A stretch of DNA of 63,067 nt, counting the filler, from Stramenopiles sp. TOSAG23-6 (taxonomy: Eukaryota): assembly GCA_900128565.1 (NCBI GenBank). It is 11 parts of 11 records of this genome, joined end to end, with 100 filler letters (N's around TTAATTAATTAA, not from the genome) between each part and the next. Parts side by side here need not be neighbours in the genome. Positions count along the whole stretch, not along the records: positions 5,769 to 11,425 come from LT636858.1; 10 more parts are not named here. One strand, 5' to 3'. Positions 1 to 44,811 of this stretch are shown one piece after another. A model generated the notes under the pieces. It was not told the origin of the DNA and made no database searches. It was given only the letters and a program-made list of their open reading frames with translations. A program made the translations under genes and the position numbers. Positions within the stretch are counted from its first letter, which is position 1, and each line of letters opens with the position of its first letter.

Positions 1-86
1 AAAAAAATTAAATTCGAAATTTGTTAGGTACAAAATTTCGTACGAAAAAAAAATTAATTATTTTGAAATTCATAATGAAAACGTAC
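1..86 (-). mobile_element. Introner-family intron (donor GTACGT; acceptor outside window)
   Basis: ATTGGA|GTACGTTTT; TTCGTACGAAATTTTGTACCTAAC core present. Confidence 0.85.
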
Positions 87-3000
87 TCCAATTCTCGTAA
101 ATAATCGATCACAAATCTTTAATTTAGCTTTCTTACAAGGTACGTAACAACCACTTTGTGCCAGTATTTGAATCAAAGCAACTTGTCTGATAAATGTACT
201 TTTTCCAGCGCCATTTGGTCCTGTAACAATTTGTACATTTCCAGTCGCAAGATTTACATACATTGTGAAAAAAAAAAAAAAAGTTTGAAATTTGTTAGGT
301 ACAAAATTTCGTACGAAAAAAAAAATTGAAATTCATAATGGAAAAACGTACATCATTCGAAACGAATGATTCTTCGGAGATACGTTCAATGATAGGATGT
401 CGACATTGACGAATATCTAGAGCATATTTATTATTCGCAATTTCTGGATGGAATTCGGGTCGTACATTTACAATGTAAAATATTTTTTTTTTTTGGTACA
501 ATTGAATAGGTATAAAATTTTCATAGTAAAAAAAATGATGAAAATGATAAAAAAATCCAGAAAACGTACATAATCATTAAATTCAGCCACAAGGCTTGCG
601 AATCCAGTAATCATATCTAATTGAGCAACGGCTTCAGTGACACGAACTAGAACTTCAATATCGCATCGTAGAGAGTCTTTTGCAGTATCAATAGCACGAT
701 GTGTTCGTAGAAATATAAGTTTCAATGATTGTTCAATTTGACTATTTAATGATAATAATTCACGAATCGTCCAATTGATGTATTGTGAAAAAAAAAAATT
801 AAAAAAAATCGTTAGGTACAAAATTTCGTATGAAAAAAAAATTTAAATTAGAAATTCATATAAAAATACATCCACTTCCCTTTCCGTACTGCTTGTAAAA
901 TTTCATCTTGTGGTAATTCATTTTCAAATTCGGCTGGAATTCGTAAGATATATCCTCGTGATACCGTATGATATATATTACATTCTGGTAGATCCCAAAT
1001 ATTTCGTTTTGTTTCTTCGAGTTGTTCAACTTCATTAATAAGACCAGTGAAACATTCTCTTTCTACATCAAGATCATCATCAATATTTTTTTCTACAGCC
1101 CAGACCGCTTGAAATTGCATTCCTAAACTATCTTTTGTAAACATCGTGTCTTCACTAAAAATTGAATTCAAAATATTTTCCATCCGTGGAAGTGCTCTAT
1201 CTGAAAAAGTCTTTTGTATTGCAGACAAAAGTTCAGACTTTGCATCTGAAAGCGAATTGGCCAATCTTGGAAGCAACCCTAAAATATGTTTTAAGGATAT
1301 TAAACTGACTATAGAAGATTTTGCTGTTTGCATGGAAGGTTCTTCAAATTTTGATTTTGAAGCCAATTGATTCAGTAATGTATCAAGATTGACAAACTTT
1401 GATAAAATATCACCAACACCAAAAAACATATATTTTGGAAAAATATTTCAAAAAAAAAAACTAAAATTTGTTAGGTACAAAATTACGTACGAAAAAATAA
1501 ATTCGAAATTAAAAAAAATAAAACATACATCGTTGAAGATGATAAAAGTTCTTCAACAGCATCTAAACGTCCATTAATGGTACCTTCATTTGCTGGTGGA
1601 CAAATTAATGTAGCTCGGAGTTTTTGTGCACCAACGGAGGTTTTCGTGCGATTTACAATGGCTAATAATGTATTCGTCTTCTGTTTCCCAGTTCTAGCAT
1701 TAGTGACAATTTCAAGATGTCGAACACTCACATGTATTGTGAAAAAACACGAAATTGTACGAAAAAAAAGTTAGGTACAAAATTTCGTACGAAAAATAAA
1801 TAAATTTGAAATTGAAAAAAAATAAAAACATACATGATCTACTATCATTTGACCTTCTAAATCAACCCATTTGATTTGCATACTTTTTGGTAAAAACAGA
1901 ATTTTTTGATATTCTTCTGTATGGTGAATTAAACACGCTAAAGAGGCAAGTGGCAAATATTTTGCTTTTATATCAGTTTCAACGGCATTTGCACCAAGCT
2001 TTGTGACTAAAGAAACTCCTGCATCTTCGTTATAAAACTTTCTCTGACAAGGAAGAACATCAATACCAGGAAAAAAACGTTTTACAGATTGTACTAAAAT
2101 ACCTTGAATCAATGTGTCAGGGACAAGTAACACTGATGCATTTTTGACAATATTTCCAAAAAAAAAAATTTTTTTTTTGTTAGGTACAAAATTTCGAAAA
2201 AAAAAAAAAATCATATAAAAACGCACATGGATCGAAAGCTTGTAATAAGGCAAGAGTTTTGCTAAAGTTTCGATTATCATTAATCTGAGATAATTTCAAT
2301 GAAGTTTGATTATTTAAATCCATACATTGTGAACAAATATTTTTTTTTTGATTTTGAGATGTAAAAAAAAATTGTTAGGTACGGAATTTTTGGAGAATGT
2401 TTTTGAAAAAAAATAAATACAATTCAAATTGAAATTCAATTTTGAAAACATACATTGCAGCTAATCCGACTTCAAATGCTCGGGATTGTGAGATTGCAAC
2501 TTTGACTAAATATGACCTATTTGTATTCGGGTTGGAGTTATTTGCACGAGATCCACTTCTATTGCTACTAGTACTTTTACGACTTTTAGATTTTCTAGTC
2601 GAATTTTGTGTTTTTCGTGTATTTCTACAACTTTTGTCTTCTGTTTTTGTTCTCGTAGATTTTGTGACATTTCCATTTAATCTCATCCTTTTACAAGATG
2701 ATGGTCTACAATGACTATCTAATTGGGATGTTTTTCTTCTGATTGATTGTGGCACCAAACGTGGAGTATATGGTGGTGGATTTTGTTGGATTCGACTTTG
2801 TTGGATTCGATTTTGTTGCATTGGTGGTGATGGATTTTGTTGGGTTGGTGGATTTTGTTGCATTGGTGGAGGTGGATTTTGTTGCATTGGTGGTTGTGGA
2901 TTTTGCTGCATTCGACCAAAACTACCTTCAATATAGTGCGATGTATCACTTTGGTAATTGTAACCATTATTGGTGTCTGGTTGGAAAGCTCCGATAGAAG

Positions 3001-3598: not shown

Positions 3599-4995
3599 AT
3601 GACTACAAGCTCTAGTAACATAGAATGGTCAATCCCAGATCAACCTTTTAGAAGCTTAGGACCTTCAAAGAAAGCAATGCCACCTCCCGTTCCAAAAAGA
3701 CAAGACAAATTCTTCAAGAGTGACTGGGGTTGCCAAAACAGTGACGTCAAAAACAACGACGAAGAGTCGGAACAAGTAAACAAAATTCTTGAAGCAGAAG
3801 AGGCTATTCGACAAGCACGTGAACTAACACAAGGCAGTATGCGCTTCAACCATTTTACAAGTGGAGGCACGCGGAGAGATCAAATTAATACTTCAACTCT
3901 TCGGCGTATTTCGGAAGCTATTGCTAATCTTTTTCGTATCAAAAAAAAAGAAACAGTGGGAATTCTCGATTCAGGACATGACTACCATGTAGAAGCAATT
4001 GAATTGATAAAGTTCCAAAATACAGAATTTCTTGGTTATCTACGCCTCAAAATTCGTAAGGCAAGGTCCCGGCTGGAATTACGAAATGTCTTCAAGAGTA
4101 ATCAGCGATGGCTTGCCATGGTTGAACTTGCCCCTCCAGACCACAGCCATACTTTATTACCAGATGAACTATCAAAAATGTTATTTAAAGGTGTTGAAAA
4201 AGATGCTGAAATTGTCATCAATGACTGCGCTATTAAAGCTTGCTATGTAGATGAGCATGTATGTTTTACTTTTTTTCAAATTTTAAGTTGTTTTCGTACG
4301 CAATTTTGTACCTAACGAAAAACCATTTGAAATATTTTTCCAAAATACATATAAGTTTATTGTTTAGTAGAAAATCGAAGACTCGCCGAGCTGCTTTGGT
4401 CCACTCATTGAAGCAAGCAACACTTGTATCGTCAACTTCAGGAGATGCATGTATGTTTTATTTTTTTTTTAACAAAAAACTTTTCGTACGAAATTTTGTA
4501 CCTAACAAATTTTTTAGATTTTTTTTTGAAATATTTTTCCAAAATACATACTTAGTTTTATATACACTACTCGGACCGAAAAATTTATTATTGAAAAAAC
4601 TTCGCCTGAGGTTACGAAATGGTCGAGATAACTGCCGAACTGGAATAGAATATTCGACTGAGATGGACCGTGTTATAGTCGAATCTGTTAATATTTTTGA
4701 TATTTTATTTGTACGCCCTAAAAAGGATGGAACAAGTCAATGTGTACGTCTTTTTTCAGTTAGGGTTTGCATATTACAACAAATTGATATCCCAACTTGG
4801 AGTAATGTTAGAATGGCAAGCGTATTATTGATGGCACCAGAAGTAACAACTCAGTCCACGGAATCTCCTACAAAAAAGACAGAAGAGTCAAATATTCCTA
4901 ACCCTAACCCTATAGATAATATTCAGAGTCCAAAAGACACAAAAACACAAATTATAGAAAGTTCGCCTAGTACTGTTATATCCAAGGATAAATAG
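3599..4995 (+). CDS. Hypothetical protein, 3 exons (3599-4258, 4351-4450, 4550-4995)
   Basis: Two ORFs become one frame after removing two family introns; no motif recognised. Confidence 0.7.
4259..4350 (+). mobile_element. GT-AT introner intron
   Basis: cAT|GTATGT..TACCTAAC..ccaaaatacAT|ata; in frame. Confidence 0.85.
4451..4549 (+). mobile_element. GT-AT introner intron
   Basis: cAT|GTATGT..TACCTAAC..ccaaaatacAT|act; 99 nt. Confidence 0.8.
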
Positions 4996-5668: not shown

Positions 5669-5768
5669 NNNNNNNNNNNNNNNNNNNNNNNNNNNNNNNN
5701 NNNNNNNNNNNNTTAATTAATTAANNNNNNNNNNNNNNNNNNNNNNNNNNNNNNNNNNNNNNNNNNNN
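5669..5768. other. Artificial contig linker; also at 11426-11525, 17181-17280, 22927-23026, 28673-28772, 34418-34517, 40161-40260, 45896-45995, 51626-51725, 57355-57454
   Basis: Identical 100-nt spacers of N around TTAATTAATTAA (stops in all six frames). Confidence 0.98.
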
Positions 5769-5862
5769 GGAAAAATATTTCAAAAAAAATCTAAAAAAAA
5801 TTGTTAGGTACAAAATTTCCTATAAAAAATAAATTCGAAATTGAAAAAAAAATAAAACATAC

Positions 5863-7014
5863 ATCTTTCCCTTCCTCATTTTCATCAATTGCCCAACGTT
5901 TGACGAGGTCGTGATAGTCTCTGTACGGTGCTCCACCTGTACATTGGAAATATATTTCAAAAAAAATGATTGGTTTTGTTAGGTATGACATTTGATACCA
6001 AAAAAAAAAAATTCGAAATTCGAAAAATGAAATATACCTGTGTAAGGGATGCGTCCAGGATTAGATCGAACCTCAGGCATTGATTTACAACGGAGCACAT
6101 TATCTCTAAGATCTGCGAGAGTTCGACAATCGCGTAATTTTGTAAAAGCCTCGGGAAATAAGTAACCACAAGTAGGAAGAAGCGACTGTCTTTCCGTCCG
6201 ACCCATATAGTATTAAAAAAAATGTAAGAAAAAAAAATTTTAGGTACATAATTTTCTATGAAATAATAATAATAAAATGTAAGAAAAAAAATATTAGGTA
6301 CATAATTTTCTATGAAATAATAATAATAATGATGAAAACGTACATGTGTGTCTTTGAAAGGTTTGAGAAATCAGCAATAAATGAAGCATCAATGATACTA
6401 ATACTTATCTGATCAGCACGAACTTTGAGTAAATGGCCCATTATGAATTATGAAAAAATATTTCAAAAAAAAATTGTTAGGTACAAAATTTCGTATGAAA
6501 AAAAAATTATATAAAAAATTGAAATTGAAATGAAAACGTATATTTCCGCTGTCTCTCCACCTAAATTTTGTGTAAATGTATAAAAATCTTCAAGATACAA
6601 CTTCATAACACCATTTTGAAGCATATAATCACGTTGTTCAGAGAGTAATGAAGTAACTTCATCAGATCCTTGCAGTTTCTGTTTGTCTTTTAGTGACAGT
6701 AAATATTCCTCAAAATATTTTCCAACAGACGTTCCAATCAAAACAGTCCAGACAAGTATTGTGAAAAAAATATTTCGAAAAATCTAAAAAAATTTGTTAG
6801 GTACAAAATTTTCAAAAAAAAAAATCGAAATTGAAATGAAAACATACAAGTTGTTCAGTTCCTTTCTTAGTGGGCTCGAATGAGGCAATCGCCTTCATCG
6901 TAGATTCATCAAACATTCCTAGCGGGTGACAAGACTCCATTATAGCACTTATTTCCACTCCCACATCCGCATTTTTGAAGAGATTGAGAATCTTAAAGAC
7001 ATTGTCTATCATAT
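5863..7014 (-). CDS. ATP6V0D: V-type ATPase V0 subunit d, internal fragment; exons 7014-6848, 6753-6542, 6442-6344, 6204-6038, 5936-5863
   Basis: YMIDNV..CHPLGMFD..VLIGTSVGKYF..KLYLEDFYTFTQNLGGETAEIMGHLLKVRAD..GYLFP matches Vma6/subunit d motifs. Confidence 0.85.
5937..6037 (-). mobile_element. Family intron with GT-AG ends
   Basis: cAG|GTATAT..TACCTAAC..caatgtacAG|gtg. Confidence 0.85.
6205..6343 (-). mobile_element. GT-AT intron with internally duplicated core
   Basis: cAT|GTACGT..2x TACCTAA..actatAT|ggg; restores KTHMGRTER. Confidence 0.75.
6443..6541 (-). mobile_element. Family intron with AT-AT ends
   Basis: aAT|ATACGT..TACCTAAC..aattcAT|aat; restores conserved TAEIM. Confidence 0.7.
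6754..6847 (-). mobile_element. Family intron with GT-TT ends
   Basis: cTT|GTATGT..TACCTAAC..caatacTT|gtc; restores EQLVWTVLIGT. Confidence 0.8.
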
Positions 7015-7109
7015 ATGTATTTTGGAAAAATATTTCAAAAAAAAGTTTGTTAGGTACAAAATTTCGTACGAAAAATAAATTCGAAATTGAAAAAAAAAAT
7101 AGAACATAC
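7015..7109 (-). mobile_element. GT-AT introner intron at the NOL6 / V-ATPase d junction
   Basis: cAT|GTATGT..TACCTAAC..ccaaaatacAT|ata. Confidence 0.8.
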
Positions 7110-8841
7110 ATGCTAGTGCTGGTGCACCAGAATCGGCAGCAGGACCTTTTTCTACCAACCGCCAAGCATCTGGTTCATTTAAACGTAATGCTAAACTCAT
7201 CACAGGTGCATTATCCTTATTTGAATTATATGTAGGTGGAGATTCGAAAACACCCCATTGAGCTTTACAACCAACGCTATCACGTACACGAATCATTTGG
7301 ACTCTGTCCCCTAATGCATACGCCATCGTACGAGCTAACGAATTACGGAAAGCAATTGGCCATGATTGATCACACAATGAATTAAATATTGGAAGATCTC
7401 TTTTCGCTTGAATAAGTTGTTTTTTTGTATCCTGTGAATCACTGTCAATGTTTTGTGGTTCCTTTGGTCCAAATCTTGGCATAAACACAGTGAAAAACTC
7501 ATCAAAATTTACATCAAATCCAGAAGAGATCATAAATATAGAATGAAAGGCATCAACAGGATCTCCAAGAAAAGCAATCGCAGATTGTTTCGCAAGATGA
7601 CGTAATTCGATATAAGCATCTGTCGAGACTCTGCTAAAAATATTCACTGCGGGTATTCCTCTCTTTCCTGGTAAAATAATAGCAATATCGAATACTTTAT
7701 TCCAAGCTGATACATCAATACTTTCAGATATGATTTCATCATCATTTTCATCTGAGTTTTCTTCGGAATCTTCTGCATCATTTGGAGCAGGAATTAAAAT
7801 GCCTGATTCAGCAACATCAGTATTAGCAATAAACTCAATTGTTAATCGAAATATATGATATGGATCCATCTGTGGTGTAACAACGCCAGTACGAAATAAG
7901 TGAAGGAGGAGAATACAAAGCTGAAAACCATTGACGCTATCTGAAGCCTCATGAAGCTGCCGTCTTCTACTCCATATCTTCAAGAGAATACATGCCTGTG
8001 CAAATGAAGGTGACTCCAAAGCTAGTGCATGCAGCTGTTGAAGATGATCACGAAAACACATATCTTCTAAAATAGAGTTATTATAAAGAGGAGTAGCCGG
8101 TTGAGGTTCATCAAGGAAGCATCGGCGGCGGACGTTATTCCTTCGTAGTGCTAATTTCCCATGGCTAAAAGCGTCAGCTGAAACACAAGGCAAAATACGC
8201 AAAACACACTTTGATAGAGATGAATTAGTAGATTTTGATGAAGTTGCAGAAGTTTCTGTAGGTTGAAGGCAAAGTACAATTTTAGACAAATCACCACGAA
8301 ATCCTTCCAGCCAAACTTTTTTGAAGAGTTTCGTCTTTTTTAATTCTTGTGCGACAACACCGAGATAGAGTGCACGCTTGTCAGTGTATCTGTGATTCAA
8401 GTAGTCTTTCGGGGTAATACATGCGTCCGGAATCTCAATGGCTACGTCAATATTCAAGGAAGGCTTCGCCAAAGAGCGTATAAGGAAACTGCCAACAACG
8501 TCAACGCGAGCAGGGCTTTTGAAAGATAACTCAACTGGCTTGGTATGACGGTTCTGACAACAAATACCACTAAGAGAAAGTGTACTCTCTGTGACAGTCT
8601 GATCAGGTATTGTATCGATAGCAGACTTAAGGGCGAACATTACTTCCTGTATGCCAGAAAGTTTTTCGTAGTTTACAGAAAATTCGGACAAAAGTTCTTT
8701 GATTTCGAGTTGCCACAAATTTGACTTGAGTACACTATTCAGATTGCCTTCACGACTTGAAAGTGATCGCAAATGGCGAGATTCTTCCTCTGTTGGGGCA
8801 CTGAAGCGTGAGTCATGCTTCTTCATTGTAATTGGTGCCAT
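7110..8841 (-). CDS. NOL6: Nucleolar protein 6 / Utp22 (Nrap family), 5' part only
   Basis: VVGSFL..IDVAIEIP..KDYLNHRYTDKRALYL, ATPLYNNSILED, LLKIWSRRR, VEKGPAAD. Confidence 0.9.
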
Positions 8842-9018
8842 CTGTATGTTATATACAGATTTCTAGCTAGGGGGAAGTAACAGTCCTACTCCCTTGCAGT
8901 TCTGTCTGTCTCTTTTTTGTCTTTTTTGAACTGACTTTATTTACTACTACTACCGTTTAGCTTAACTACAAACCAAGTACCTTTTCATACACCAATTCTA
9001 TAAATTATAAGCATTTCA

Positions 9019-10201: not shown

Positions 10202-11373
10202 CTAATTTGACTTGGGTTGACCTAATACTTCCAGAATAGTAGCTTGGCAAGCTTCTGCTAACCTAGTTGCTGCTTCCAACGTCGATGCCTCTGCATATAC
10301 TCTCACTACATCCTCAGTTCCACTTGGACGAACAAAAGCTCGACCTTCTTTCCCTTCAGCCGCTACTAATTCGTCAATTTTAGTTTGTAAATTAGGAGGT
10401 TGTATAACTTTGAGACCTTCCGGTGTCAAAGAATTTGAGATCGCATTACGGTCAGGGACCCGAACAGCAATTTGTTTTGAAGGAGTATTAGTGAAGAGGT
10501 CCTTCCATTCTGAAAGACCCCAACCCTCCAATGCTAAAATAGCTTCTACCATCAACATATCAGCAAGCGAATCACCAACACCTTGATTAATGAGCTTATA
10601 CGAAGAAAGTAATCGCTGAAGAGCTAAACGCTTTCTTGGGGACAATGTATTTTGGGAAAATATTTCAAAAAATTTAAAAAAATGTTAGGTACAAAATTCA
10701 CTACAAAATGTTTTTTCAAATTGAAATGATGAAAACGTACATGCATCTGGATCTTTTTCATTATTCTTTGATGACTCGATTGTGGCCTTATCACGTTTTT
10801 CCATATCACGAAGACGTTCAATGAATGTTGATTTAAATACTGCAGTACCATGGCCATTTGCTTCAAAATACACACCAATATCAAATTCTAGGGCTTTATG
10901 ATGTACTGGAAAAAATATTGTAGAAAAAAAAATGTTAGGTACGGAATTTCATACCAAAAAAAAAAACATTTTTGAAATTCATGATCAAAACGTACATGAC
11001 AATGCTTAACACCAGTTCGAGTAGTTGCAACTGTTAAACCTAAATCCTCCTTCATATATTTTGTAGAAGCCCCGTTCGCATAAGGAGTTTGAACACAACC
11101 AAATGTCATGGTGTTGGCTGTGGTATCTCCATCAGTAGATAAAAGACCTAAAACTTGACACTCACGTACGAGAAAACGGGAGAACAAAACTGTCTCTGCA
11201 TCACCATCCAATAAATGCCATTTTGAATCAGCATCGTAATAGTGATATACAATTCTATCAGCATCACCATCGATAGAAGCAATTCGTTTTCCTCGATCGT
11301 TAGAAGAAATCCCTTCTGGCGGAACACCATTTCTGTATACATGATCAGCACCACACTTAAAGTTGAGTACGCC
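10202..11373 (-). CDS. PGM3: Phosphoacetylglucosamine mutase, 3' part; exons 11373-10996, 10900-10741, 10644-10202
   Basis: [59 protein letters not shown]. Confidence 0.95.
10645..10740 (-). mobile_element. GT-AT introner intron (PGM3)
   Basis: cAT|GTACGT..TACCTAAC..caaaatacAT|tgt. Confidence 0.85.
10901..10995 (-). mobile_element. GT-AT introner intron (PGM3)
   Basis: cAT|GTACGT..TACCTAAC..ccagtacAT|cat; restores conserved KHCHHKA, the nearby AG is out of frame. Confidence 0.9.
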
Positions 11374-11577
11374 ATGTATTTTGGAAAAATATTTCAAAAA
11401 AAAAAAAACTAAAATTTGTTAGGTANNNNNNNNNNNNNNNNNNNNNNNNNNNNNNNNNNNNNNNNNNNNTTAATTAATTAANNNNNNNNNNNNNNNNNNN
11501 NNNNNNNNNNNNNNNNNNNNNNNNNACGAAATTTTGTACCTAACAATTTTTTTTTGAAATATTTTTCCAAAAAACAT

Positions 11578-12512: not shown

Positions 12513-15500
12513 CTAACCTTGTACTTTAGCTGAAAAACTAAACTGAAACAAAGGGTTACCCTTTGACTGAAATACAGGCCACCATTCTTGATACATTGGT
12601 CCATCAGGTTTAAAACGTATTTTATATATTTTTGTATCTAGCATTTGTGAAATCGCGTCATAGACTTCATCATAAGTACTCTTAAACTTATGACCGAAAT
12701 TTTGTACCTCCATATCAAGTGATTGAGCTTTATCGTTGAAATGTACAATAGTTTGATGTCTTTTGTAATTATTAGGATCAGAAACAATTTTACTCATTTC
12801 ATCTTNGAAATCTTTTATTATGATTGCTTGACGAGCACTAAATTCTTCAAGCTCCCAACGAACCCAATGACATATTCGTACTCTTTCAGTATCCGAAATN
12901 CCATCAATGTTCGTATCCAAATTGATGAAATCCGGTAAATCTCTTGGTATGTCTGTACCTGGACTTTCTTGTTTGAATTTTTTCCTGAAATCACGCATTC
13001 CCTTTCGTCTTTTCTTCTTTATTTTTTTAATTCTTTTCTTGATATCCTTGGCGTTTTCTGGTGTTTCAGATATTTCTGTCATCATTTGCTCTTCTTCAAT
13101 GCGTGTCCATCTGATGGTCATTTGTATCTGATAATAATAATGTCTTTGTAGATGTGTTTTTCTCGAGATTGCATCATACATGGCATTACTTAAAAGCATC
13201 GGGGAAATTTTATTATATCTGTCTACTATTGCATTCCATTCATTTTGAAACCTAATCTCTGCCTCATTGCTGATTTCAAATGTTTGGTCACGACTAAAAA
13301 CGTAGTGAAATAAACTTTCCCAAGTTGTCATTGGTACACCAGCCAATCGGCATTTACGAACAGCCAAATCTGATGCTTCAAAGGAATACATATGGATTAA
13401 TCTTTCTTTTCGCTCCTCATCAGTCCAAGTTAAATGTCCAGGATAGTTTTGGGTAAATACTGCATAGTTCTGAAGTATATTCTGCAATAAGTCAACTTTA
13501 CGTGAAAGCAATGGACACAGTTTTGGCTGAATATTACCAATCTCATCCGGAATGTTGCCCATTTCTACATTTACAATTGTGAGTTCCTCTTCCTTACGTC
13601 GAACATCTTCCATGAACTTTTGGAAAATATGTCAATTGTTTTTCTGTAAGGTATAAAATTTCGTACGAAAAAATTATTTAGGTAAAAAATATAAGATGAA
13701 AACTTACATTAGTAAAGCAAATGGTAATTTAAGACGATCTGGTAGTTCTATATCTAAAGTTCTAGAACCAGGAAATATATCATTTTTGATTGTATCACTT
13801 TTCAATACATGTGTATCATCATAAACCTTTTCCCAATCTTGACCAATATTAAATAGATAACCAAAAGAAAGGAGCGGGATAACCAACCCAAGTATACTAT
13901 AATATATAGCAATTGGTTGCAGACTCCATCTAATTTTTGTTTTTTTCTCGGTTGGTTTATTTTTCTTGTTTTTATGATTGGTTTTAGTTTTAGTTTTAGT
14001 TTTAGTTTTGGTTTGATTTGCGGAATGCTCGTTGCCAACGTTTCCGTTTGCTTCCTCGTTTTTTTTCTTCCTTCGTCGGCGACGTCTCTTTTTAGTTTTC
14101 GACTGAGGTTTATGTTGTCCAACAAATAATTTTGTTTCAACAGGAGTTATTTTTTTCTCTTTAGGAGAAACATCAATCTCTTTTTGTTGTAGAAGTTCTT
14201 CAATTCGACTTTTATGTAGAACAGGCAGAATATCTTTAGAAGTATGCGAAATATGCTGAGAAACTTTTAATTTTTTATCATCGTGGGGTTCTTTGTTATC
14301 ATCTTGAGGTTTATTTTTATTCTCTTGAGGTTCATTAGTATGATGATCATTAGGAATAACTGCTGCTGTGCTATTTGCTTCCCCTGGACTCTTTGCTTCA
14401 TTTCTATCACCGAAACAAGGAATTTCAACCAAAGAGATACTAGAATTTTCAAAACATGGGCGAATATCACCACCACTAACAATATGTTTATATAAATCAT
14501 CAAATGACCTTTGAACTCGTAGAATATTCCGTACATTAACACTTGCATTTTTTTTCATTTTTTTCACAAAGTGGATCCTGGATAAACATTTCTCCTTGTT
14601 GATCAAATGGAGTATTTCTTTGTACCCCATCAGGGTAAAAAANACACTCAATGGGTCGCATGTGCATTTCTTTGTTTCGTCCGATATATGGACTATCACG
14701 AGAAAATGTTTTTAAAAACCTAATTAATTTTTCAACTAATGAATATCGATTTAAAATAGCACCTTGCATACTTAAAAAAAAATGTACCATTAAGATGAGA
14801 ACATAACCTGTTAAAGTTCCATCACGAGGATCGTATAATTTCGCTTTAAACAAATATCTCTTCATTAATAATACTATTTCTCTCATACCTTGATAACGCC
14901 CTAAGCTGTCTGTAACAAATTCAAGAGCACGAAGTCCCGAATGATTTGAAGTTTGTATTGAAATGTCGGCTTTTATATTTTGACCTTCCAGAATAATATG
15001 AGGAATCTCAGTACCAATAATTTCGGTTTCGTATCCAGAATCAAAAACAGTATTCAAAGTCTGCAAGTAATCGATGACTTCAGTAGAAGGAACTTCCCAT
15101 GGAAAAGATACAACAATATCAAGATCTGATATCCCATTGACGTAAAGGTTTTGAGCCACAGAGCCATACACAGTAGCCTTGACACCATTCGTGTAATATT
15201 TTACGCCGTGTTGGTCCACCAATGGCCACTGATAAATATTTTCTCCCAATTTTTCAACAAATTGTTCTTGATTCATCCGCTGCTTGTTGTCGTTATCGGC
15301 AAGAAGAATATTTTCAAGGTAGCGATTCGCCCAAACTTTATACTCAGGCTTTAATGTTGAATGGTCGAATGTAGGGGTGCTACAGTGTTTTCGTGTTGGT
15401 TTTGGTATAAATTCCTTCGAACTCTCCTTTAGATCCGATGTGGGTGAAACAGTAAGTGGAGCAAGTCCTCTCAAATGACTAGCGGCATTTACATGATCCA

Positions 15501-16929: not shown

Positions 16930-17280
16930 TGTACACTAAAGATTTCTCTAGGGTTGGACCTTACTCTTAAAGATCACTTCATCTGTACTACTATAAATTT
17001 GCTAAATGTATAGTTTAATCGCTCCAGTTGTTCATCAAATGAACGAAGATCAAAATCATATGGAATTCGTATATTAGGAAGAAGATCGATCGAGATCTTT
17101 TGATTTAGATTCGAAAAAATCGAAAAAACGTTTCCATTTCGATTTTGCGGAGGTGTCGGAGGTTATCAAGAACAGGTCTGNNNNNNNNNNNNNNNNNNNN
17201 NNNNNNNNNNNNNNNNNNNNNNNNTTAATTAATTAANNNNNNNNNNNNNNNNNNNNNNNNNNNNNNNNNNNNNNNNNNNN

Positions 17281-20200: not shown

Positions 20201-22876
20201 GTAGATCTTGCTTTAACTTCAACTTTGCCTCAAAATCCTTCATTTTTTCAGATCCCATAAGATTTGCTTCCGCTTTAAGATCTACGTCCGCTTGAAGCAA
20301 AGCTTCTTGGCGTTCCTGGTGAGCTTCCAGATTTAATTCTTTCTTTGCTTCTGCGTGTAAATGTTCATGAAGAAGATCTTGCTTTAACTTCAATTTTGCT
20401 TGAATATCTTTCATTGCCTCTGGATCAGTCGAACTTGCTATGTTTTTTAAATCTTGTGTTGCCTGTTGTAAAGCCTTCTCGCGTTTCTCATGTTCTTCTG
20501 CTTCTACAGCATCGTCAATAGCTTCATCGTTAGCCTGTGATCGCATATCAGCCTTCAATCGAAATTCTTTGCTCTTCATTTCTAATAGCTTTTGTTGGTA
20601 GATTTTTTTCTGGTAAATGTTCTCCTGTTGATGTGTACGAACTCTTCTCCACGCAATTTTAATCCTTGGTTTATTCATTCCAGGAATATGTATTGTGAAA
20701 AAATATTTAAAACTGAATTTTGTTGTTAGGTACAAATTTCGGTATGGAAAAATAAAACTTTAATTCAATTTTGAAAACGTGCGTGAAACATATTGCCGGG
20801 TTTTTGGTCAACTTCATATTCTCTCAGCGAGGATTGCTTTCCTTCAATATTGATCTCGACGCTACCAATGAGATTTGGGGTTGAGTGAAGTGATTCATCA
20901 GGACTACCTTCATCGTAATCAAAAAGATGTACATGCAGCACTGGTTTTTTTATATTAGTTCCATCACCTGGATGGACATGGACAATTTGTCGTTTAATGC
21001 GTAAAAGAAAGTATTGTTTCCAGATAGGTTTTAGAGTATCTTTCATTATTTTCGTTTTACCCCAACGGTCAGCCCCAACGTATGCTTTTATATAATCAAA
21101 CTTTTCAGGTACGTTAGACGTTTGGTTCGTTAGATATGTTAAGCAGCATGCATCAGTAGTTCGTTTCCTCTCAACTTTCGAATGTCGATCTGTTCGATGG
21201 GGATCAATATCGATATCATTCATATTCGGTAATTCAGTTGCTGAAAAAATACAAACTTCGACGTAAGCACCATCCCTAGAAACACCCCCAGGATGGACAT
21301 GTGGTCTGTGCATTCTTCGATGTACATTTGATATAATAGTGTCAGATTTGAATTTTGCATCGTGATGAACTTCGGTCAGTTCATCTGCAATAGCTTTAGC
21401 TTCAGCGGCTTCCTTTGCTGCCTCCGCAGCTTTCGCTTCAGTGTCTTTTAGGTTCGCCGTAGTCATATCTCCATCTCCACCTTTTTTCAATGAACGTTTC
21501 GCCGCAGTAGCTTTCGATATTAAAACTGCAGCATGTTCCTTCTTCTTCTTTGCTTCAGCTACAGCATCATCTTTCGCTTTATGAGCAGCAATTTCAGCTT
21601 CTGCAAGTTTAGAATGCTCTTGAGCGAGATTTGATATTTTAGTCTCAGCGGCTGTAGCTCTCACCCGGTCTAATTTTGACAGAGCTTCCGATTCGACAAA
21701 AGAGTATCGCTTTGATTTAGTTTTTGCATGTTGCAGTGCCACCCTTGCATCTTTCGCTGCCTTTTGTGACGCTTCATCTTGTTCAATTAAATGAGCAATT
21801 TGCTCAGTTGCCATGGGTCCTTTCGTTTCAACCGCTCTTTTCAGAGCCCGCCGAGTCTTTGCAGCAGCTGCTTTCTTCTCTCTTGCAACAATCACACTTT
21901 CTTTTACTGCATCATCTGCCTTTTTGGCGGCCTGTTTTGCTACGACATGTTCTTTTGCACAACTGAGTAGCAGTTTATTTGTTTCCTCTGGAAAATCATC
22001 ATTATGCCAACTTTCATGTGCCTCCTTGACGACTTTAGACTCTCTTTTGGAACGGGATGTTTCTTGTTTTGCAATTTCATAGTCAGCGACGGCTTTTGCC
22101 CTTTTCTTCTTTTTTGCTTCTAACAATTTCCATGCTGCAGAATCAGGACCTGCTTCTTTTGTTTTAAGGAGATTATCTTGAGCGTCTCTCCATTCTTTAG
22201 TAGCCNNNNNNNNNNNNNNNNNNNNNNNNNNNNNNNNNNNNNNNNNNNNNNNNNNNNNNNNNNNNNNNNNNNNNNNNNNNNNNNNNNNNNNNNNNNNNNN
22301 NNNNNNNNNNNNNNNNNNNNNNNNCTCAGCAATATCATGAATATTTGTAGCCTCTTGATGATTCACTTCGTCTTGGACTAATTTGTCACACGCAGCTTGG
22401 AAATTATTTCTCGTCCAAGTGCCACGATGTTGTGCTTGAAGTTTAACCATTGCTCTTTTAAACACTTTCTTCAGCTCGAGTTTTTTTCTCGATTCGTTAC
22501 CACGTTGAATTGCTTGTATTTTACTAGCTGCCTTTTCATTTTCAGAAGTAGCCTTTACTTCAATGGCAGGCTCTTCAGATTTATGATGATGGTGTTTATG
22601 ATGGTGATGGTGGTGTTCGCCATGTTCGCCCTGATGATGTTCGCCATGATGATGGTGTTTGCCATGATGATGTTCTCCTCCCTCATGATGCTCTCGCTGA
22701 TCTGATTTATCTTTCTCCGCATCTGTAGCTTCTTCAGCACCCGTAGCCGTATTATTTTCACTTTGTTTAGAATCACTTTCCACAACACTTTCAACGGCGT
22801 TTACTGCGTTGTCTTCACTCTGTATTGGAACTGGTTCCTCTGACGAAGAATCTTCTGAACTTGAATCGTCCGACAT
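17281..22876 (-). CDS. Large IQ-motif / C2-domain / repetitive coiled-coil protein, 3'-truncated, with gaps
   Basis: IQAIQRGNESRK and LQAQHRGTWTR; C2-like SATELP..KTKIMKDTLKPIW..LFDYD..IGSVEI; many KxFExKLxxKExLL repeats. Confidence 0.75.
20688..20782 (-). mobile_element. Family intron with GC-AT ends
   Basis: cAC|GCACGT..TACCTAAC..caatacAT|att; keeps frame NMFH-IPGM. Confidence 0.75.
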
Positions 22877-23064
22877 CTTAGAGCTTAATTACTAAATATA
22901 TTGTTTAAATCACAAGAATAAAGTAANNNNNNNNNNNNNNNNNNNNNNNNNNNNNNNNNNNNNNNNNNNNTTAATTAATTAANNNNNNNNNNNNNNNNNN
23001 NNNNNNNNNNNNNNNNNNNNNNNNNNTTGAGTTTTTTTTTTTGAAATATTTTTCCAAAATACAT

Positions 23065-28672: not shown

Positions 28673-28772
28673 NNNNNNNNNNNNNNNNNNNNNNNNNNNN
28701 NNNNNNNNNNNNNNNNTTAATTAATTAANNNNNNNNNNNNNNNNNNNNNNNNNNNNNNNNNNNNNNNNNNNN

Positions 28773-30047: not shown

Positions 30048-33000
30048 TCACTGCCGTCCAATAAAATGTTGATCTAAAAAGTGAATAAATCTTGATTTGT
30101 ATGCAGGTGCCGGATTTGAACTAATATCTTCTCCTTTTGCTCCCATTAACGCAATCTTACTTGTCATTTCAAGTCTTTTTTTCCAATCATAAGGTTGTAA
30201 GATATCAATTATACCTAAATAGTATACAGTATTGTTCATCACAATTCCACTGGAAATATTAGAGATGTTTGTACTTTCCGTCGTAATGATACCAAGCAGT
30301 AAAGAATAATCAATAATATTAAGCCTAGCAAGGAAATCTGTATCTATTTGCAACTGTTTCATCAGATTTATCTTTGCTTTGATTGGTATATCAATTTCAT
30401 GTAAATCTTCAATAAAGTTCACATCTTTACCGACTGCATATGGAAATGGTTTATTTAAAACTTTATCTGAAACTCTTCGATTTCGTTTAGATCCTTTCAA
30501 GTCATATATATCTATAGTTTTCACTCTATTATTTTGTTTGTTTTGCAAATTTCCCGATTTTACCAATTCAAAAATTGGTTCTAATAAGTTTTTCATTACT
30601 AGGACAATACGGTGTGATTTCTGAGGTAAACTTTTCATTTCAATAAGAGCACAAAGTTGGACGATACGCGTCTGGCAACCATACGATAGCATATGACAAT
30701 AATATTTTTCAATCATTTCAAGAAATTGTGAAATTTCAAATGGTTTTACGGTCTTCACAATAAATTTTCGGTCACTTGTATAATAAAAAGCTGCGCCACT
30801 TTTTCCAGCTTCACTTTCGCCGCCCACCAAAGGATTTGAGAAAGATTCAATAAATTGTGCATTCGAGATACCATAGTTGCTTCGAAGATGTGAAAAAACA
30901 GTAGGTGTATAATCAATTATTTCAGAATGAAAAGGACCAGTAAATCTTCGGTTTTGTTGAAATTCACCAAGGAAAATATTTTCACGAAATTCAGTTGCAG
31001 ATTTACACTGTTCAATGTACCCTTTAAATTGTTGGGTTGTTGTACAGTCTTGATTTGAATCTTTCTCCAAAGTATTTTCTACTATTTCCTCTTTTGCAAT
31101 AATTTCAAAATTCTTCTGCAACTGTGCTGCTCTAAATATTGCATCCCCTATTCTTTTTTCTGTTTCACTAAATAAATGCTGCTTTTGTTTTGGTATATTT
31201 GGTCTTTTTTCTGTTTCACTCAATAAATGCTGCTTTTGTTTTGGTATATTTGGTATTTCAAAAGCTTTATCATTATCAACTTCATTCAGCTTTTGTTTCA
31301 CATTTGATATCTTTATTGGTGATGCTTCAATAGAAATTGGTGTAGGATCATTAATTACTGAATTTGAACTAAATTCTTTTTCGTTATCTTGTTGTACCAA
31401 TTTAGATGTTTTTGCACGAAATATCTCTCTATTATCAAAATCATTCCGTCGATTATATGCACACTGTTGCTTCTCCGCCTCTTGTTGAATGATACATTCA
31501 ATAGAATTTGATGGTTCAAGTATGATATTTGGAGCAGGTCGTGTAGAACAAATCTTCATAATCCACATAGATAGTTCGCTTTTATTTGAGAACCCTAGAT
31601 ATAAAGTGTATTTGGAATTCTTTTCATTTAACTTTTGAAATTTTTGTGGTTTCTCATAAATATCTCTCGCTTGACATATATCAATTTCGTATGAATTTGG
31701 ACGAAGAAAAATATCACAAATTCGTAAATCATACTTTTTAGTGTACAAATCCGGCGTAGTATCACTAACCAACGGTCCATTTCCATCTGCGGCAAGTCTT
31801 TGTACTGTTATTCTTGTCCCATCAAAAGTAACCCACGAAAGTTGTGCTGTTGAAAAGGCTGTATAACGTTTTATATGACGCACTGGTCCCGAAATTGACA
31901 CTTCTTTCGAAGATGATTTCATTGAGTGATTTATACATTGATTTTTTCTTTGAAGTGTAGTAGTCTTATTATGAAGTTTTCGCTGCGAACTATTTACATT
32001 ATTTGTTTCTGCTTCTATTACTCGAAAAGTTCGTTTCACTGTATCAACGATAACATCTCTATTTGTCTGAAATATCTCCTTACCATATAGTAATACTAAA
32101 TCACTATAGGGAAAAGATGCATTCATACTAACGGACAAGTCTATTTCATTTGTTCTACCAGGATTACCACAATGTATACCTTTTTGTTTTCGAAAAGATT
32201 TGCGAGCAAGAATCTCAGTTCGATTAAGAATTGGTGGTGCACCAGTCAATGATTGTAATGATGCATTTCGTATTATAATTCTCGGCTGCAAAGTTTTGGG
32301 CTTTATATTTCTAAAAGAACGAATCCATTTGTCTAGTTCTGCTGCAGTCGCAAAACGTAATGTCCAATAAGTATATCCTAATGCTGCTGAAGTACTTTTT
32401 GATTGACTACACGTATTATTTTTTTCTTCTTTTATTTCATTGATTGTTGCTTGATTACTATCCCTTTTGGGTTCTGGATTTTCTGATTGATGTGAATATC
32501 TTATTTTGTTTGAACATGTACTGCCCATAGTATTGATGTATTGTAGGAAAATATTGCAAAAAGTTTGAGGTTTTTGTTAGGTACAACATTATCTAGGAAA
32601 AAAATGAATTAAACATTGTAAACATACAGGGTTCTATTAGATCCCCAATGACGCATCACTCGGATCTCCTTCTTCTCTTTATCACATACTATTGAACCAC
32701 ACGATAAATCAATCATATCAAAATGTTCCAGCAATATCTCTACGTTGTCTGTTATTTCATTGCTTTTAGCAAGTGGTAAACGCCAACTTTTAGATTTCCT
32801 TTCTTTTTCATTTTCTTGTGCACACCACAGTTTTGTTCCATACAATAAAAGACGACTATATTGCCATTTATCACTTCCCCAAGTGGATGACACACGGCGT
32901 GTTGTGTATCCAAACATTTGAGCTGGCGTCTGCAAAAATAGCTCGTGTGCGTATTCAATGGCAGAAATCCATAAACAAGAACTTTCATAATCTTGGGTGT

Positions 33001-33780: not shown

Positions 33781-34529
33781 TTATTAANNNNNNNNNNNNN
33801 NNNNNNNNNNNNNNNNNNNNNNNNNNNNNNNNNNNNNNNNNNNNNNNNNNNNNNNNNNNNNNNNNNNNNNNNNNNNNNNNNNNNNNNNNNNNNNNNNNNN
33901 NNNNNNNNNNNTTGACGTCTTTATTACAATGTCATTTTTTTGTTTCTCCATTTTCAACGAACTTTCGGCTTTTTTTATCCCAAATCTATTTGTATTTTCC
34001 GTACTATAATATTTCTTCATAGGTAATGTAACTGATGTAGTTTCAGTTTTATTTGTTGTTCTTGTCGAAATAGTTTTGTTGGATCTAGATTTATCTATAT
34101 TATGTGGGGTAAATGGTGGCATCGATTGAGAACTCGATAGGCTATTCATGATCATATGTTCCGATGATTTCAACATATTTGGAGCAGTAGACGTTTTTTT
34201 TAAAGAACGAGATTCGAGCCATTTTTGTTCATTTTGTAATGATTTTGGGTTCGTTGAAAATGGAGAAACAAAAAAATGACATTGTAATAAAGACGTCAAC
34301 AATGTGGGAAATGACTCAACGCGCAATAGAATTATTATTTCATCGCTGGTACGCAAGTGTTCAACTCGATGATGAAAATATGAAAGAAATACCAGGCTTG
34401 TGCCAAACACAAATTCANNNNNNNNNNNNNNNNNNNNNNNNNNNNNNNNNNNNNNNNNNNNTTAATTAATTAANNNNNNNNNNNNNNNNNNNNNNNNNNN
34501 NNNNNNNNNNNNNNNNNTCAGAGATTAAT

Positions 34530-37787: not shown

Positions 37788-37885
37788 ATGTACTGTGAAA
37801 AAATATTTCAAAAAAAAAAAGAAAAAGTCGTTAGGTACAAAATTCCGTACGAAAATAAAATCTGAAATGAATGATGAAAACATAC
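37788..37885 (-). mobile_element. GT-AT introner intron at the SWR1 / RFC2 junction
   Basis: aAT|GTATGT..TACCTAAC..cagtacAT|gct. Confidence 0.8.
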
Positions 37886-40160
37886 ATTAATCTCTGACGT
37901 TCTTCCACTTTCGTACTACCATCAAGTCGAACATAAGTATGTCCATGTNAATTCAGAAATATTTCTAAAACATTCAACATCTTTGTCATTTGTGTAAAAA
38001 TTAAAACTTTTGAATTTTGAGATTTCAATTTTCTCAGCAAAGGATCTAAAACTTGAAATTTACCACAGTCCCATTGAACTAAACGTTTATCCGGAAATAA
38101 AAGAGATTGGCGACGTAACCATTCATAATGAATTTCACGCCATTGGTGTAAAGCATTTTGTACAATACTATTATCTATATTTGATAATGCAGTACTTATT
38201 TCAAGAGGAACGGACCTGCCTGGTGTATCAATTTGTGGAATACTTTCTGACGGTTTTACTTTGGGAACAACTGACGTGAATTTTTGTGTTAAAATTGTAC
38301 CCATTTTCATTCTTTTTCTATAAGAATTAATCAAACCAATAGAATTATTAATAGAATCATCAACACCAAAATTTTTCCATAATAATTGATGCTTTAATAA
38401 AACATGTACACTATGACGTACATCTTTACCATATATAGGTTGTTGCTCAAGACGTAATTGATTAATACGTGAATTACGCATCCATCTATACTTCATTTCA
38501 TTGTCTTGTTTTTGTTTATACTGAAAATATGATGAGTATAATACTGAAGATTTTGGTACACCATAAAGTGTATCATTTTGATTTTGATTTTTCCACAGTG
38601 ATGATAATTTCTCTACTGTGGGACATAGCTCAAGCGCGCGAGATGAAGAAAAACTCGATTTTGATGTATTTGCTGATACATTAAAATGTATTGCTATAAG
38701 AATTTGTTTTTGTGTTTTTGAAAGATGAGAGGTTTCTGTTTCTGCAAAATGATTAGATGAACTATTGTGAATATCCATTATCAACCTAGGAAATGTCATA
38801 CATAATGGTGGAGGACAAAACGAAGACTCGATAAGTCTTTCTTCAAATAAATCTGGGTGATTACATACTTTACGCAGCTGCATCAACACACCCATCATAC
38901 TAATCACACTACCTCCTGATAGAGCAGCTCTTGTTGAACCTCTTGCCATAAAATCTTCATATAGAAATTGTTGACGTCGTGATAGCTGGCATTTAACAAC
39001 ATGTACTGTGAAAATATGTCTTAATAGTTTGGAATTCGTTAGGTATTGGATTTGAAATTATACAAATATTAAACAAATACGACACAAACAAATACTAAAA
39101 TTACTGATGAAAACATACATGTTCATATTTACCAGGTAATTCCTTTGCAACATCTTGTTTTAAACGACGTAAAAGAAAAGGACGAATAATTCCGTGTAAT
39201 CGTGAAATAACAGTTTCATTCACTGCAGTTTTACCCTCCACCATACCTGTCAATGGATTCGAAAACCAATATTTAAACTCACCACGTGAACGAAATATTG
39301 AAGGCATTAAAAAGTGCATTAAACTCCAAAGTTCCATTAAACTATTTTGTAATGGTGTTCCAGTGAGTAATAAACGTCTCTTCGTATTGAAATGTAATAA
39401 AGTTTGCCAGCGTTGAGATTGAAAATTTTTAATATTTTGTGCCTCATCGAGAATCATATAATACCATCGCTTACGACGAAAAGCATGGGCATCTTGGACA
39501 ACTAATTGATACGAAGTGATACATATATGAAAACTATTAAATTTTGACCACCCTTTTCGTTTCGTCGCACGTTGTTTTGCAGATCCATAATAAGTAATCA
39601 TATATTGTAAGAAATATGTGTACAATTTGAAAATTGTTAGATATAAAAAAAGTTTCACTTTGAATTTTTCATATGAAAATAAAATGAATAATGAAAATAA
39701 AATGAATAATGAAAACGTACACTTTAAAAGATGGACACCATTTCTTGATTTCCTGTTCCCAATTGACTATTACACTAGTTGGAACAATAATTAAATGAGG
39801 ACCCCACGCTGCTCTACTACTTGCTAAATACGCTAATAAAGTAATTGTTTGAATTGTTTTACCTAAACCCATTTCATCTGCTAAGATACCATTCAAACGA
39901 CGATCATGCATTGACACAAGCCAATCAACACCAGCACGTTGATAATTACGTAATGTTAGTTTTGGTGCAAGTAAAAATGGAACAGACACAGTGTACTTAC
40001 CAGATTTCAGATTCTCAGGAGTTTGCGTCGTTGATAACGGTTGTATTTGCTTTTCTATGGCACTATCATCATCATCTGTATATTCACAATTATCAACATC
40101 AGTATCACTATCAGACGATAAATCTCTATGTGCACCACCACCATATCGTTTTATTAATTC
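37886..40160 (-). CDS. SWR1: SWR1/SRCAP SNF2 ATPase, central exons (40160-39721, 39599-39119, 39000-37886)
   Basis: NGILADEMGLGKTIQT, ILDEAQNIKNF, LMQLRKVCNHPDLFE, DCGKFQVL, YVRLDGSTKVEERQRLM. Confidence 0.92.
39001..39118 (-). mobile_element. GT-AT introner intron (SWR1)
   Basis: cAT|GTATGT..TACCTAAC..cagtacAT|gtt; restores KYEHVVKCQLSRRQ. Confidence 0.88.
39600..39720 (-). mobile_element. GT-AT intron (SWR1)
   Basis: aGT|GTACGT..TATCTAAC..caatatAT|gat; restores FKVITYYG. Confidence 0.8.
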
Positions 40161-44747: not shown

Positions 44748-44770
44748 GTATGTTGTTCATCAAAAATATC

Positions 44771-44811
<41 letters not shown>

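Follow-up and report, generated by a model that had tools for sequence, protein, structure and literature searches.

The sequence analysed here is a window of 63,067 bases from Stramenopiles sp. TOSAG23-6 (GenBank assembly GCA_900128565.1), made up of about 11 unlinked contigs of about 5.7 kb and separated by ten spacers, each consisting of 44 N, TTAATTAATTAA and a further 44 N (Table 1). As the contigs are unlinked, genes on the two sides of a spacer are not neighbours, and position 1 has no meaningful surroundings to its left. The minus strand of one contig (5769-11425) carries, at 5769-7014, a partial gene for subunit d of the V-ATPase, identified from matches in the PDB and from Pfam PF01992 on its homologues. 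Six sequences interrupt this gene and all are copies of one element with a unit of about 95 nucleotides (nt), five of them complete (A to E) and one (F) truncated where the contig stops. The elements are removed from the transcript exactly, together with one copy of a flanking dinucleotide which in most cases is AT and not the AG expected at the 3′ end of an intron. All 36 introns recognised in the window belong to this family. The host is an AT-rich marine protist of stramenopile type, read as MAST-3-like from the source label of a protein 100% identical to one exon, which begins GSMAST32; the GC content of the window is about 0.24-0.41 and its DNA is also present in DNA runs from 2015 and in seawater metagenomes and metatranscriptomes. 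Metagenome contigs searched with the related protein P0002 gave four loci with an identity of only 25-32%, too distant to serve in a comparison of empty sites.

The coordinates and boundary letters of the V-ATPase d introns were found as they had been described in the original prediction, to which only the start of intron C was added, its first base being A instead of G. In intron B the boundaries read ..CAACTT^GTATGT..CAATACTT^GTCTGG and in intron E ..CACAG^GTATAT..TGTACAG^GTGGAG (^, exon-intron boundary). Two contigs of the polyA metatranscriptome X9 cross these introns. Record 27 (248 nt, 0 differences) joins 6959-6846 to 6751-6618 and skips 94 nt, while record 26 (224 nt, 0 differences) joins 6198-6036 to 5934-5874 and skips 101 nt, which are exactly the lengths of introns B and E. 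The reported breakpoints are shifted by 2 nt because GT stands after both boundaries. Exact removal of the introns ending in TT and AG is thereby observed at the RNA level, with the TT intron at 6754-6847 behaving as had been predicted for the spliced-read check. In DNA, record 1 of the metagenome X3 (5908-6210) contains the whole of intron E at a depth of 5.7, with neighbouring unique contigs at about 7-8, and record 2 of the DNA run X3 (6498-6782) extends into introns C and B. Most of the joints among the contigs listed stem from other copies of the element and are uninformative on splicing.

For the introns ending in AT, removal is supported by homologous proteins and by the reading frames. 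Two related proteins of other sources, P0002 (90% identical) and P0003 (83% identical), are unbroken over the junctions. Across intron B, P0003 reads ..TEMLVWTVLIGTPVGKYF.. (EMLVWTV); across intron C both proteins read AEIMGH and the gap in the tblastn alignment is exactly 33 codons; across introns D and E, P0002 reads THMGRTE and SGGAPY, respectively. The V-ATPase d of this organism is about 20 residues longer near junction B than the solved chains, and the spacing on PDB chains alone could not reject a 10-residue insertion at this junction; such an insertion was ruled out by the RNA contig and P0003. The exons of the genes for Mob1, phosphoacetylglucosamine mutase and an SWR1-type helicase also adjoin without a gap on PDB chains.

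A frame test that needs no homology was also conducted, in which the unit from GT to the last dinucleotide was removed and the longest upstream and downstream reading frames were joined. In a first pass, 22 of 23 informative introns were in frame (P = 5e-10, binomial against 1/3), and six of seven further informative copies passed. The overall result was 29 of 30 informative copies, after the 3′ end of the copy at 54735 in the Mob1 gene had been moved by 2 nt. For that copy the end at 54859 (GT/GT) failed the test and was rejected, while the end at 54857 is in frame and agrees with the MOB1 alignments, the exons on either side adjoining at residues 75/76 on PDB MOB1 chains. Exact removal of the element is confirmed as an observation, and the removed unit is, as had been proposed, the element plus one copy of its 2-nt flank. 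For the introns other than B and E, the comparison of sequences gives removal that is both frame-exact and homology-exact.

The consensus of the element is GTAYGTTTTC .. TTTCGTACGAAA .. TTGTACCTAACAA .. GAAATATTTTT .. CMAAATAC. Within the 63-kb window, to which all counts given here refer, its 13-nt core is found in 41 places at no more than two mismatches, and an nhmmer profile built from 24 copies gave 63 matches at E<=1, 44 of these at E<1e-3. There are 36 complete copies and one doubtful one (44748-44864). All complete copies are genic and lie in sense orientation to the flanking open reading frames (ORFs), in genes which include those for V-ATPase d, phosphoacetylglucosamine mutase (PAGM), Mob1, an SWR1-type helicase, PIP5K and a UTP25-like protein. 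The form AT^GT..AT^ had been expected to prevail and is indeed the commonest (28 of 36 copies). A short inverted repeat at the ends of the element had likewise been expected; a terminal repeat GTAT..ATAC of only 4 bp, or 6 bp with the AT flanks, is present with a weak sub-terminal repeat, and at least three terminal pairs are possible in 26 of 34 copies. Searches of the window with Rfam (no small nuclear RNA genes there) and with ARAGORN gave 0 matches each.

Table 1. Coordinates of the V-ATPase d exons, the copies of the element and the spacers in the window. Dinucleotide pairs give the exon end and the last two removed bases; ^, exon-intron boundary.
Feature	Position	Strand	Remarks
Intron A, V-ATPase d	7015-7109	-	AT^GT..AT^, 95 nt; P0003 reads YMIDNVF at the 3′ junction
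V-ATPase d exon YMIDNV..TEQL	6848-7014	-	PDB V-ATPase d match; P0003
Intron B, V-ATPase d	6754-6847	-	TT^GT..TT^, 94 nt; sequence, RNA contig, P0003, frame test passed
V-ATPase d exon VWTVLIG..GETAEI	6542-6753	-	PDB match; related proteins
Intron C, V-ATPase d	6443-6541	-	AT^ATACG..TTCAT^, 99 nt; tblastn, P0002 and P0003, frame test passed
V-ATPase d exon MGHLLKV..SKTHM	6344-6442	-	Related proteins
Intron D, V-ATPase d	6205-6343	-	AT^GT..TATAT^, 139 nt, internal duplication; P0002 and sequence
V-ATPase d exon GRTERQ..IPYTG	6038-6204	-	Related proteins; X9 record 26
Intron E, V-ATPase d	5937-6037	-	AG^GT..AG^, 101 nt, canonical register; RNA contig, DNA contig, P0002
V-ATPase d exon GAPYRDYH..EEGKD	5863-5936	-	Related proteins; X9 record 26
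Intron F, V-ATPase d	5769-5862	-	AT^GT.., cut by contig end
Element copy	15-86	-	Exon-end GA; 3′ end beyond the left end of the window
Element/intron	258-351	-	AT/AT
Element/intron	466-569	-	AT/AT; divergent 3′ end TGTAA AT
Element/intron	778-869	-	AT/AT
Element/intron	1428-1528	-	AT/AT
Element/intron	1732-1833	-	AT/AT
Element/intron	2136-2226	-	AT/AT (GTGCG..AATGC)
Element/intron	2322-2453	-	AT/AT
Element/intron	4259-4350	+	AT/AT
Element/intron	4451-4549	+	AT/AT
Element/intron	10645-10740	-	AT/AT; phosphoacetylglucosamine mutase gene
Element/intron	10901-10995	-	AT/AT; AG 5 nt before junction; PDB chains contiguous, 374/375
Element/intron	13612-13707	-	AT/AT
Element/intron	20688-20782	-	AC/AT mismatch; begins GC
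Element/intron	32536-32627	-	CT/AT mismatch
Element/intron	37788-37885	-	AT/AT; frame uninformative
Element/intron	39001-39118	-	AT/AT; SWR1/SRCAP-type helicase gene
Element/intron	39600-39720	-	GT/AT mismatch
Element/intron	44247-44345	+	AT/AT
Element/intron	44447-44566	+	AT/AT
Degenerate copy	44748-44864	+	AT/AT by sequence; out of frame
Element/intron	45079-45180	+	AT/AT
Tandem double copy	45346-45550	+	AT exon end, GT..AG
Element/intron	46183-46280	-	AT/AT
Element/intron	49197-49317	-	GT/AT mismatch
Element/intron	49461-49553	-	AT/AT
Element/intron	51427-51522	-	AT/AT
334-nt copy	54311-54644	+	AT/AT; internal tandem array; Mob1 gene
Element/intron	54735-54857	+	GT/AT mismatch; Mob1 gene
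Element/intron	55203-55341	+	AT/AT
Element/intron	57911-58003	+	AT/AT
Element/intron	60419-60516	+	AT/AT
Element/intron	60663-60761	+	AT/AT
Spacers	5669-5768, 11426-11525, 17181-17280, 22927-23026, 28673-28772
Spacers (continued)	34418-34517, 40161-40260, 45896-45995, 51626-51725, 57355-57454

To describe the ends of the element, the exon-end dinucleotide was paired with the last two removed bases in the 36 complete copies. The two are identical in 30 of these pairs (AT/AT 28, TT/TT 1, AG/AG 1) and differ by one base in the other six (GT/AT 3, AC/AT 1, CT/AT 1, AT/AG 1). Two matched pairs other than AT are reached in 326 of 200,000 shuffles of the 36 pairs (permutation p about 0.002). Both the TT/TT and the AG/AG pair stand in a C_NN_G context, with C at exon position -3 and G at exon position +1 each found in 17 of 34 copies. 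The best though unproven reading of these pairs is a target-site duplication of 2 bp for which AT, possibly as part of a CATG-like target, is strongly preferred. The proposal that the acceptor is itself the target-site duplication is supported by the TT and AG pairs and weakened by the six mismatches and by one copy in the Mob1 gene (54735-54857). Here the exon-end GT lies within a Gly codon; Gly is also the aligned residue in both MOB1 alignments displayed, and the matches to 18 PDB MOB chains extend as far as this position. From these alignments the GT flank is probably ancestral and the acceptor probably not its copy. The duplication falls short of proof because AT is palindromic, so that the 28 AT/AT pairs cannot tell a duplication from a longer inverted repeat, and because of the six mismatches and the Mob1 flank.

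For the matched pairs the spliced product is identical in every register. At intron B, where TTGT is repeated at both boundaries, the possible termini are TT..AC, TG..CT, GT..TT, TA..TG and AT..GT, and no register gives GT-AG, GC-AG or AT-AC. Among 34 aligned copies, G+1 and T+2 are conserved in 33 each, G at +5 in 32 and T at +6 in all 34; at the other end the final A and the final T are conserved in 33 each, the C of AATAC in only 23 and the exon-end A in 29. In five of the six mismatched pairs the intron end stays AT while the exon end varies. The exon-end G in Mob1 completes the aligned Gly codon, so the upstream copy of the dinucleotide must be the one kept in the mRNA. On account of the conservation of G+1, T+2 and the final AT, the variation confined to the exon end in these five pairs, and the Mob1 Gly, the alignments favour the register ^GT..AT^. 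The copy at 20688-20782 begins with GC, which is the usual tolerated variant of a GT donor.

In this register the acceptors of the 36 copies are AT (33), AG (2) and TT (1), so that AT or TT is used in 34 of 36. The suggestion that the 3′ cut is placed by position, two nucleotides after the AATAC motif, did not hold: the C of this motif is poorly kept, the cut in intron D falls five bases beyond its AATAC, the ends TGTAA-AT, AAAAT-AT and AGTTC-AT are seen in other copies, and the acceptor is AT in five of the six mismatched pairs. From the sequences, the acceptor looks like a preferred dinucleotide AT, with TT and AG tolerated, that follows a U-rich tail, and not like any copy of the exon end. 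Many other ATs are present in this tail. An AG between the branch-like box described below and the junction is present in 11 of 34 copies. Five of these copies have it 5 nt ahead of the junction; its use there would break the frame in the three informative copies without a compensating donor. An in-frame AG also lies 30 nt before the junction of intron B, where its use would add the residues IFRNIFFTIL; it is not used by the RNA contig and is used by the gene model P0001.

Apart from its acceptor, the element carries the signals of a U2-type intron. The donor GTAYGT is GTRNGT-like, and a branch-like box, TACCTAAC, presumed to act as the branch site, is conserved in 30-34 of 34 copies at each position and is followed by the U-rich tail. 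This box lies 33-53 nt from the intron end with a median of 39 nt, which agrees with the 18-50 nt usual for a U2-type intron. The donor, the box and the terminal AT are the most conserved parts of the element, as is expected if selection maintains spliceosomal signals. As in introners, near-identical introns are found in unrelated genes and the length of the mRNA is unchanged by their insertion and removal. The AG acceptor of U2-type introns is lacking in nearly all copies, and the boundaries differ from the GY-AG that published introner screens look for. It is therefore proposed, with a probability of roughly 60%, that the element is a U2-type introner with a non-AG acceptor.

In the proposed mechanism, the genes of this organism would have been colonised by one family of non-autonomous elements of about 95 nt, each copy bringing its own sense-strand signals, namely the GTAYGT donor at its first base, the TACCTAAC box and the U-rich tail. 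The element would have inserted as DNA with duplication of a 2-bp target, AT being strongly preferred. The 5′ cut in the transcript would then fall at ^GT and the 3′ cut some 33-53 nt beyond the branch box, where the downstream copy of the target dinucleotide ends, so that the element and one flank copy are removed without a scar and the acceptor is mostly AT, once TT and twice AG. Removal would be carried out by the major (U2-type) spliceosome with a relaxed or shifted acceptor specificity. A stronger form of this proposal is put forward only tentatively, at somewhat less than even odds: that in this uncultured stramenopile lineage AU has taken the place of AG as the acceptor recognised by the major spliceosome, with one introner family providing essentially all of the introns and the cut made after AU or UU despite an upstream AG.

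A number of points weigh against this reading. The direct RNA evidence covers the TT and AG introns, and among the contigs listed none crosses the AT-ending introns A, C and D. The RNA contigs are metatranscriptomic and could derive from an intron-free DNA allele. One contig of a non-polyA metatranscriptome (X6 record 9, 6019-6188) continues past the exon for 19 nt of intron E and may represent unspliced RNA or carry-over of DNA. The sole failure of the frame test (44748-44864) lies in a homopolymer-rich stretch, where the frame is restored only by a cut after ..CTAC that leaves both ATs in the mRNA; alternatively, the neighbouring exon may contain an indel error. At 10995-10901 an alternative GT..AG intron of the same length, T^GTCATG..CCAG^, lies 5 nt upstream. 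A single residue next to the junction separates the two models, being Cys with GT..AT (KHCHH) and Leu with GT..AG (KHLHH); P0007 and P0009 have Cys and P0008 and Candida 2dka have Leu, and as both residues occur in relatives the case for bypass of this AG is weakened. In Mob1, either an original GT downstream has become AT or the insertion produced no duplication of 2 bp, and six flank pairs in all are mismatched. The sense orientation of every complete copy also fits RNA-mediated spread, and no transposase was found among 11 window ORFs scanned against Pfam, which have ordinary cellular domains or none.

Several of these points are shared by an explanation in which there is no target-site duplication. 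The mobile unit would then be the intron itself, GTAYG..ATACAT, which lands after a ..AT proto-splice site by reverse splicing or by a duplication-free DNA route, and the AT at the exon end and at the intron end would be parallel preferences, as in the AG^GT..AG^ of ordinary eukaryotes. Reverse splicing has reportedly been proposed for fungal introner-like elements. The position of all 36 complete copies in sense within ORFs, the constant AT at the intron end of five mismatched pairs and the absence of a transposase from the ORFs scanned would suit this explanation, as would the Mob1 target (..GGT^GTT..), which is without a duplicated dinucleotide when the final AT is counted as part of the element. 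It would require both the TT/TT and the AG/AG pair to be coincidences, however, at the frequency seen in the shuffles. Moreover, GTAT..ATAC is exactly terminal, as in DNA transposons, when the flanks are excluded and lies 2 nt off the terminus on one side when the AT is included, and antisense fragments of the core (52407-52419 and 57722-57778) suggest insertion in both orientations. Insertion without duplication is thus considered unlikely. A matter of register only is the possibility that both cuts are to be placed two bases further upstream, giving ^ATGTAYG..ATAC^AT, so that most of the introns would be AT-AC and the TT and AG cases TT-AC and AG-AC. The product is the same for matched pairs, to whose register RNA contigs and proteins are blind; A..C termini are a known compatible pair and AT-AC introns a known rare class. 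Only 23 of 34 copies retain the would-be last C, though, against 33 of 34 for the G and T at +1 and +2 and for each of the two terminal bases, and at 54735 Asp would replace the Gly of the aligned MOB1 chains. U12-type introns tolerate non-AG acceptors and choose the acceptor largely by its distance from the branch site; they have a ATATCCTT or GTATCCTT donor and a branch site about 10-26 nt from the intron end. In the aligned copies neither a U12-type donor (RTATCCTT) nor a branch site at this distance was found, the 5′ motif being GTAYGT and not ATATCCTT and the box lying too far from the end at 33-53 nt. There is little chance that the AT-AC register is the true one.

The inverted ends also raise the question of a structure-guided, non-spliceosomal or atypical excision, similar to that of euglenid nonconventional introns or of Amoebophrya, in which the paired ends set a cut two bases outside the stem. 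A 4-bp GUAU/AUAC stem with the last two bases free does occur in the minimum free energy fold of three of six copies, in addition to the 26 of 34 copies that can form at least three terminal pairs. Against this, the folds of the six copies are weak (-5.4 to -13.1 kcal/mol, z +0.40 to -2.36), eight of 34 copies have two terminal pairs or fewer, and intron C has none and must still be removed. Position +4 is C or T equally often with no compensating change opposite, and the donor and branch box are conserved in the manner of spliceosomal signals. Stable pairing of the ends, by an inverted repeat of 8-20 nt or a CAG/CTG stem, was not seen in the copies, which have at most 4-6 pairs. As the terminal stem is of only 4 bp and is missing in these eight copies, intron C among them, and the folds are weak, guidance of the excision by a hairpin is very improbable. 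Elimination of the elements from the DNA of a somatic genome, as with the internal eliminated sequences of ciliates, would account for short, AT-rich and precisely excised segments bounded by a short direct repeat. It can be practically dismissed, since independent metagenome DNA contigs carry the elements at an exon-like depth (5.7 against about 7-8); in addition the repeat is AT rather than TA, and the elements, which bear donor and branch motifs, are found strictly in the sense orientation of genes. The U2-type introner with a non-AG acceptor is thus retained as the preferred reading.

The closest precedents, as far as the accessible portions of the reports cited here describe them, are found in Fritillaria and Amoebophrya. 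In Fritillaria borealis, non-canonical introns derive from miniature inverted-repeat transposable elements and a duplicated TAC is reported to provide a 3′ splice site other than AG; TAC in the exon stands before introns of the AG..AC type, and AT is found at the 3′ end as well (Henriet et al., 2019, as reviewed in PMC11282704). Recognition of 3′ AC or AU has been tied to divergent U2AF paralogues in Fritillaria (NAR 2026; PMC13326754), where the major spliceosome also handles introns whose last bases are AC or AT, and the U-rich tract is retained in relatives. The present family shares with F. borealis the origin of introns from a repeat and would also share the inverted ends, weak as they are here, and the use of a duplicated target as a non-AG 3′ site. 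However, the commonest termini in Fritillaria are AG-AC and AG-AT, with a non-canonical donor, whereas here the donor is a textbook GTAYGT and the departure is confined to the acceptor; the duplicated target measures 3 nt (TAC) there and would measure 2 nt here; and the hosts are an animal and a stramenopile-type protist, respectively. The introners of Micromonas, Aureococcus, Chrysochromulina and Symbiodinium co-opt canonical sites from their target-site duplications (Gozashti et al., 2022; PMC9860276). Like the present family they are short, multi-copy and sense in genes and leave the length of the mRNA unchanged. They have terminal inverted repeats and/or target-site duplications, as the present family probably does, with one splice site coming from the element and the other from the duplication; these are the 5′ and the 3′ site, respectively, in the Chrysochromulina type. 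Those families are GY-AG with duplications of 3-9 bp, in contrast to the proposed 2 bp and the AT or TT acceptor of the present one. Non-canonical introners in Amoebophrya have direct repeats of 3-5 nt and inverted repeats of 8-20 nt (Farhat et al., 2021; PMC7789003). There too, repeated introns in a marine protist have direct repeats over the exon-intron boundaries and register-ambiguous non-canonical termini, but the repeats form hairpins, the terminal dinucleotides are inconsistent and U1 snRNA was reported as undetected, whereas the inverted repeat of the present family is weak at about 4-6 nt, the termini are consistently GT..AT and the donor and branch box are classical. In the literature searched, no account was found of introners with GT..AT ends, nor of non-canonical introns from marine stramenopile (MAST) lineages; the supplementary family lists of PMC9860276 and PMC12130899 could hold a relative. 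By its canonical donor and branch box, consistent GT..AT termini, proposed 2-bp duplication and stramenopile-type host, the family stands apart from its closest precedents in Fritillaria and Amoebophrya.

A number of further features of the copies should also be noted. In most copies a perfect 12-nt palindrome, TTTCGTACGAAA, lies directly 5′ of the TACCTAAC box, for example at 7050-7075 (minus strand). The copy at 45346-45550 is the sole GT..AG intron with an AT exon end; it ends in TATACAG^, and its second, 5′-truncated unit repeats GGTTTTCATC..TATACAG. The 334-nt copy in Mob1 (54311-54644) has normal ends (AT^GTATGT..ACAATAC AT^) and an internal tandem array of TTTTTGATAA/TTTTTAATAA units. 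Antisense fragments of the core, reading ..QLLGTKSLIKKKMKKKM.. and ..QKSLGTEFVTKE.., were seen within coding ORFs of the opposite strand at 52407-52419 (plus) and 57722-57778 (minus), one of them matching at 13 of 13 positions; these may be antisense insertions that have turned exonic.

The repeat also fragments the assembly, as seen from at least eight contig ends that lie inside copies of the element (15-86, 5769-5862, 11374-11425, 11526-11576, 40274-40346, 45996-46061, 51739-51811 and 57455-57536), with a further, weak case at 23035-23064. The contig with the V-ATPase d gene is probably a chimeric join at the repeat of element A, because an Nrap (NOL6-like) ORF, with a Pfam match at 7112-8862, stops at position 105 of 160 of the Nrap_D3 profile and adjoins exon 2 of V-ATPase d across element A, and because residues 1-106 of P0001, the source's own V-ATPase d model, were found nowhere in the window. 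This gene model, which corresponds to 6466-6958, is mis-spliced and retains residues derived from the element: it omits IDNVFKILNLFKNADVG, 17 conserved residues, inserts the 10 spurious residues IFRNIFFTIL through a forced GT..AG intron (6847-6784), and runs on into intron C, where it ends. Standard gene finders thus misread genes that carry GT..AT introners, and systematic damage is likely in protein catalogues produced from such assemblies by gene finders that allow GT-AG only.

The 3′ AG is among the most constant signals of eukaryotic genes, and the few lineages that abandon it include Fritillaria, Amoebophrya and the euglenozoans. An ordinary donor and branch box together with an AU acceptor would provide a clean natural case for the study of how the site of the second step of splicing is chosen, with U2AF1/2 and the Prp8 region as candidates. 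For the origin of introns, the family would add a case from a stramenopile-type host in which the insertion of a transposon makes an intron at once, with no need for an AG in the target. If the acceptor rule has indeed shifted from AG to AU in this lineage, it would represent a protist counterpart of Fritillaria with a donor and branch site that are still fully canonical, in which the evolution of the 3′ splice site is isolated from the rest of the splicing code.

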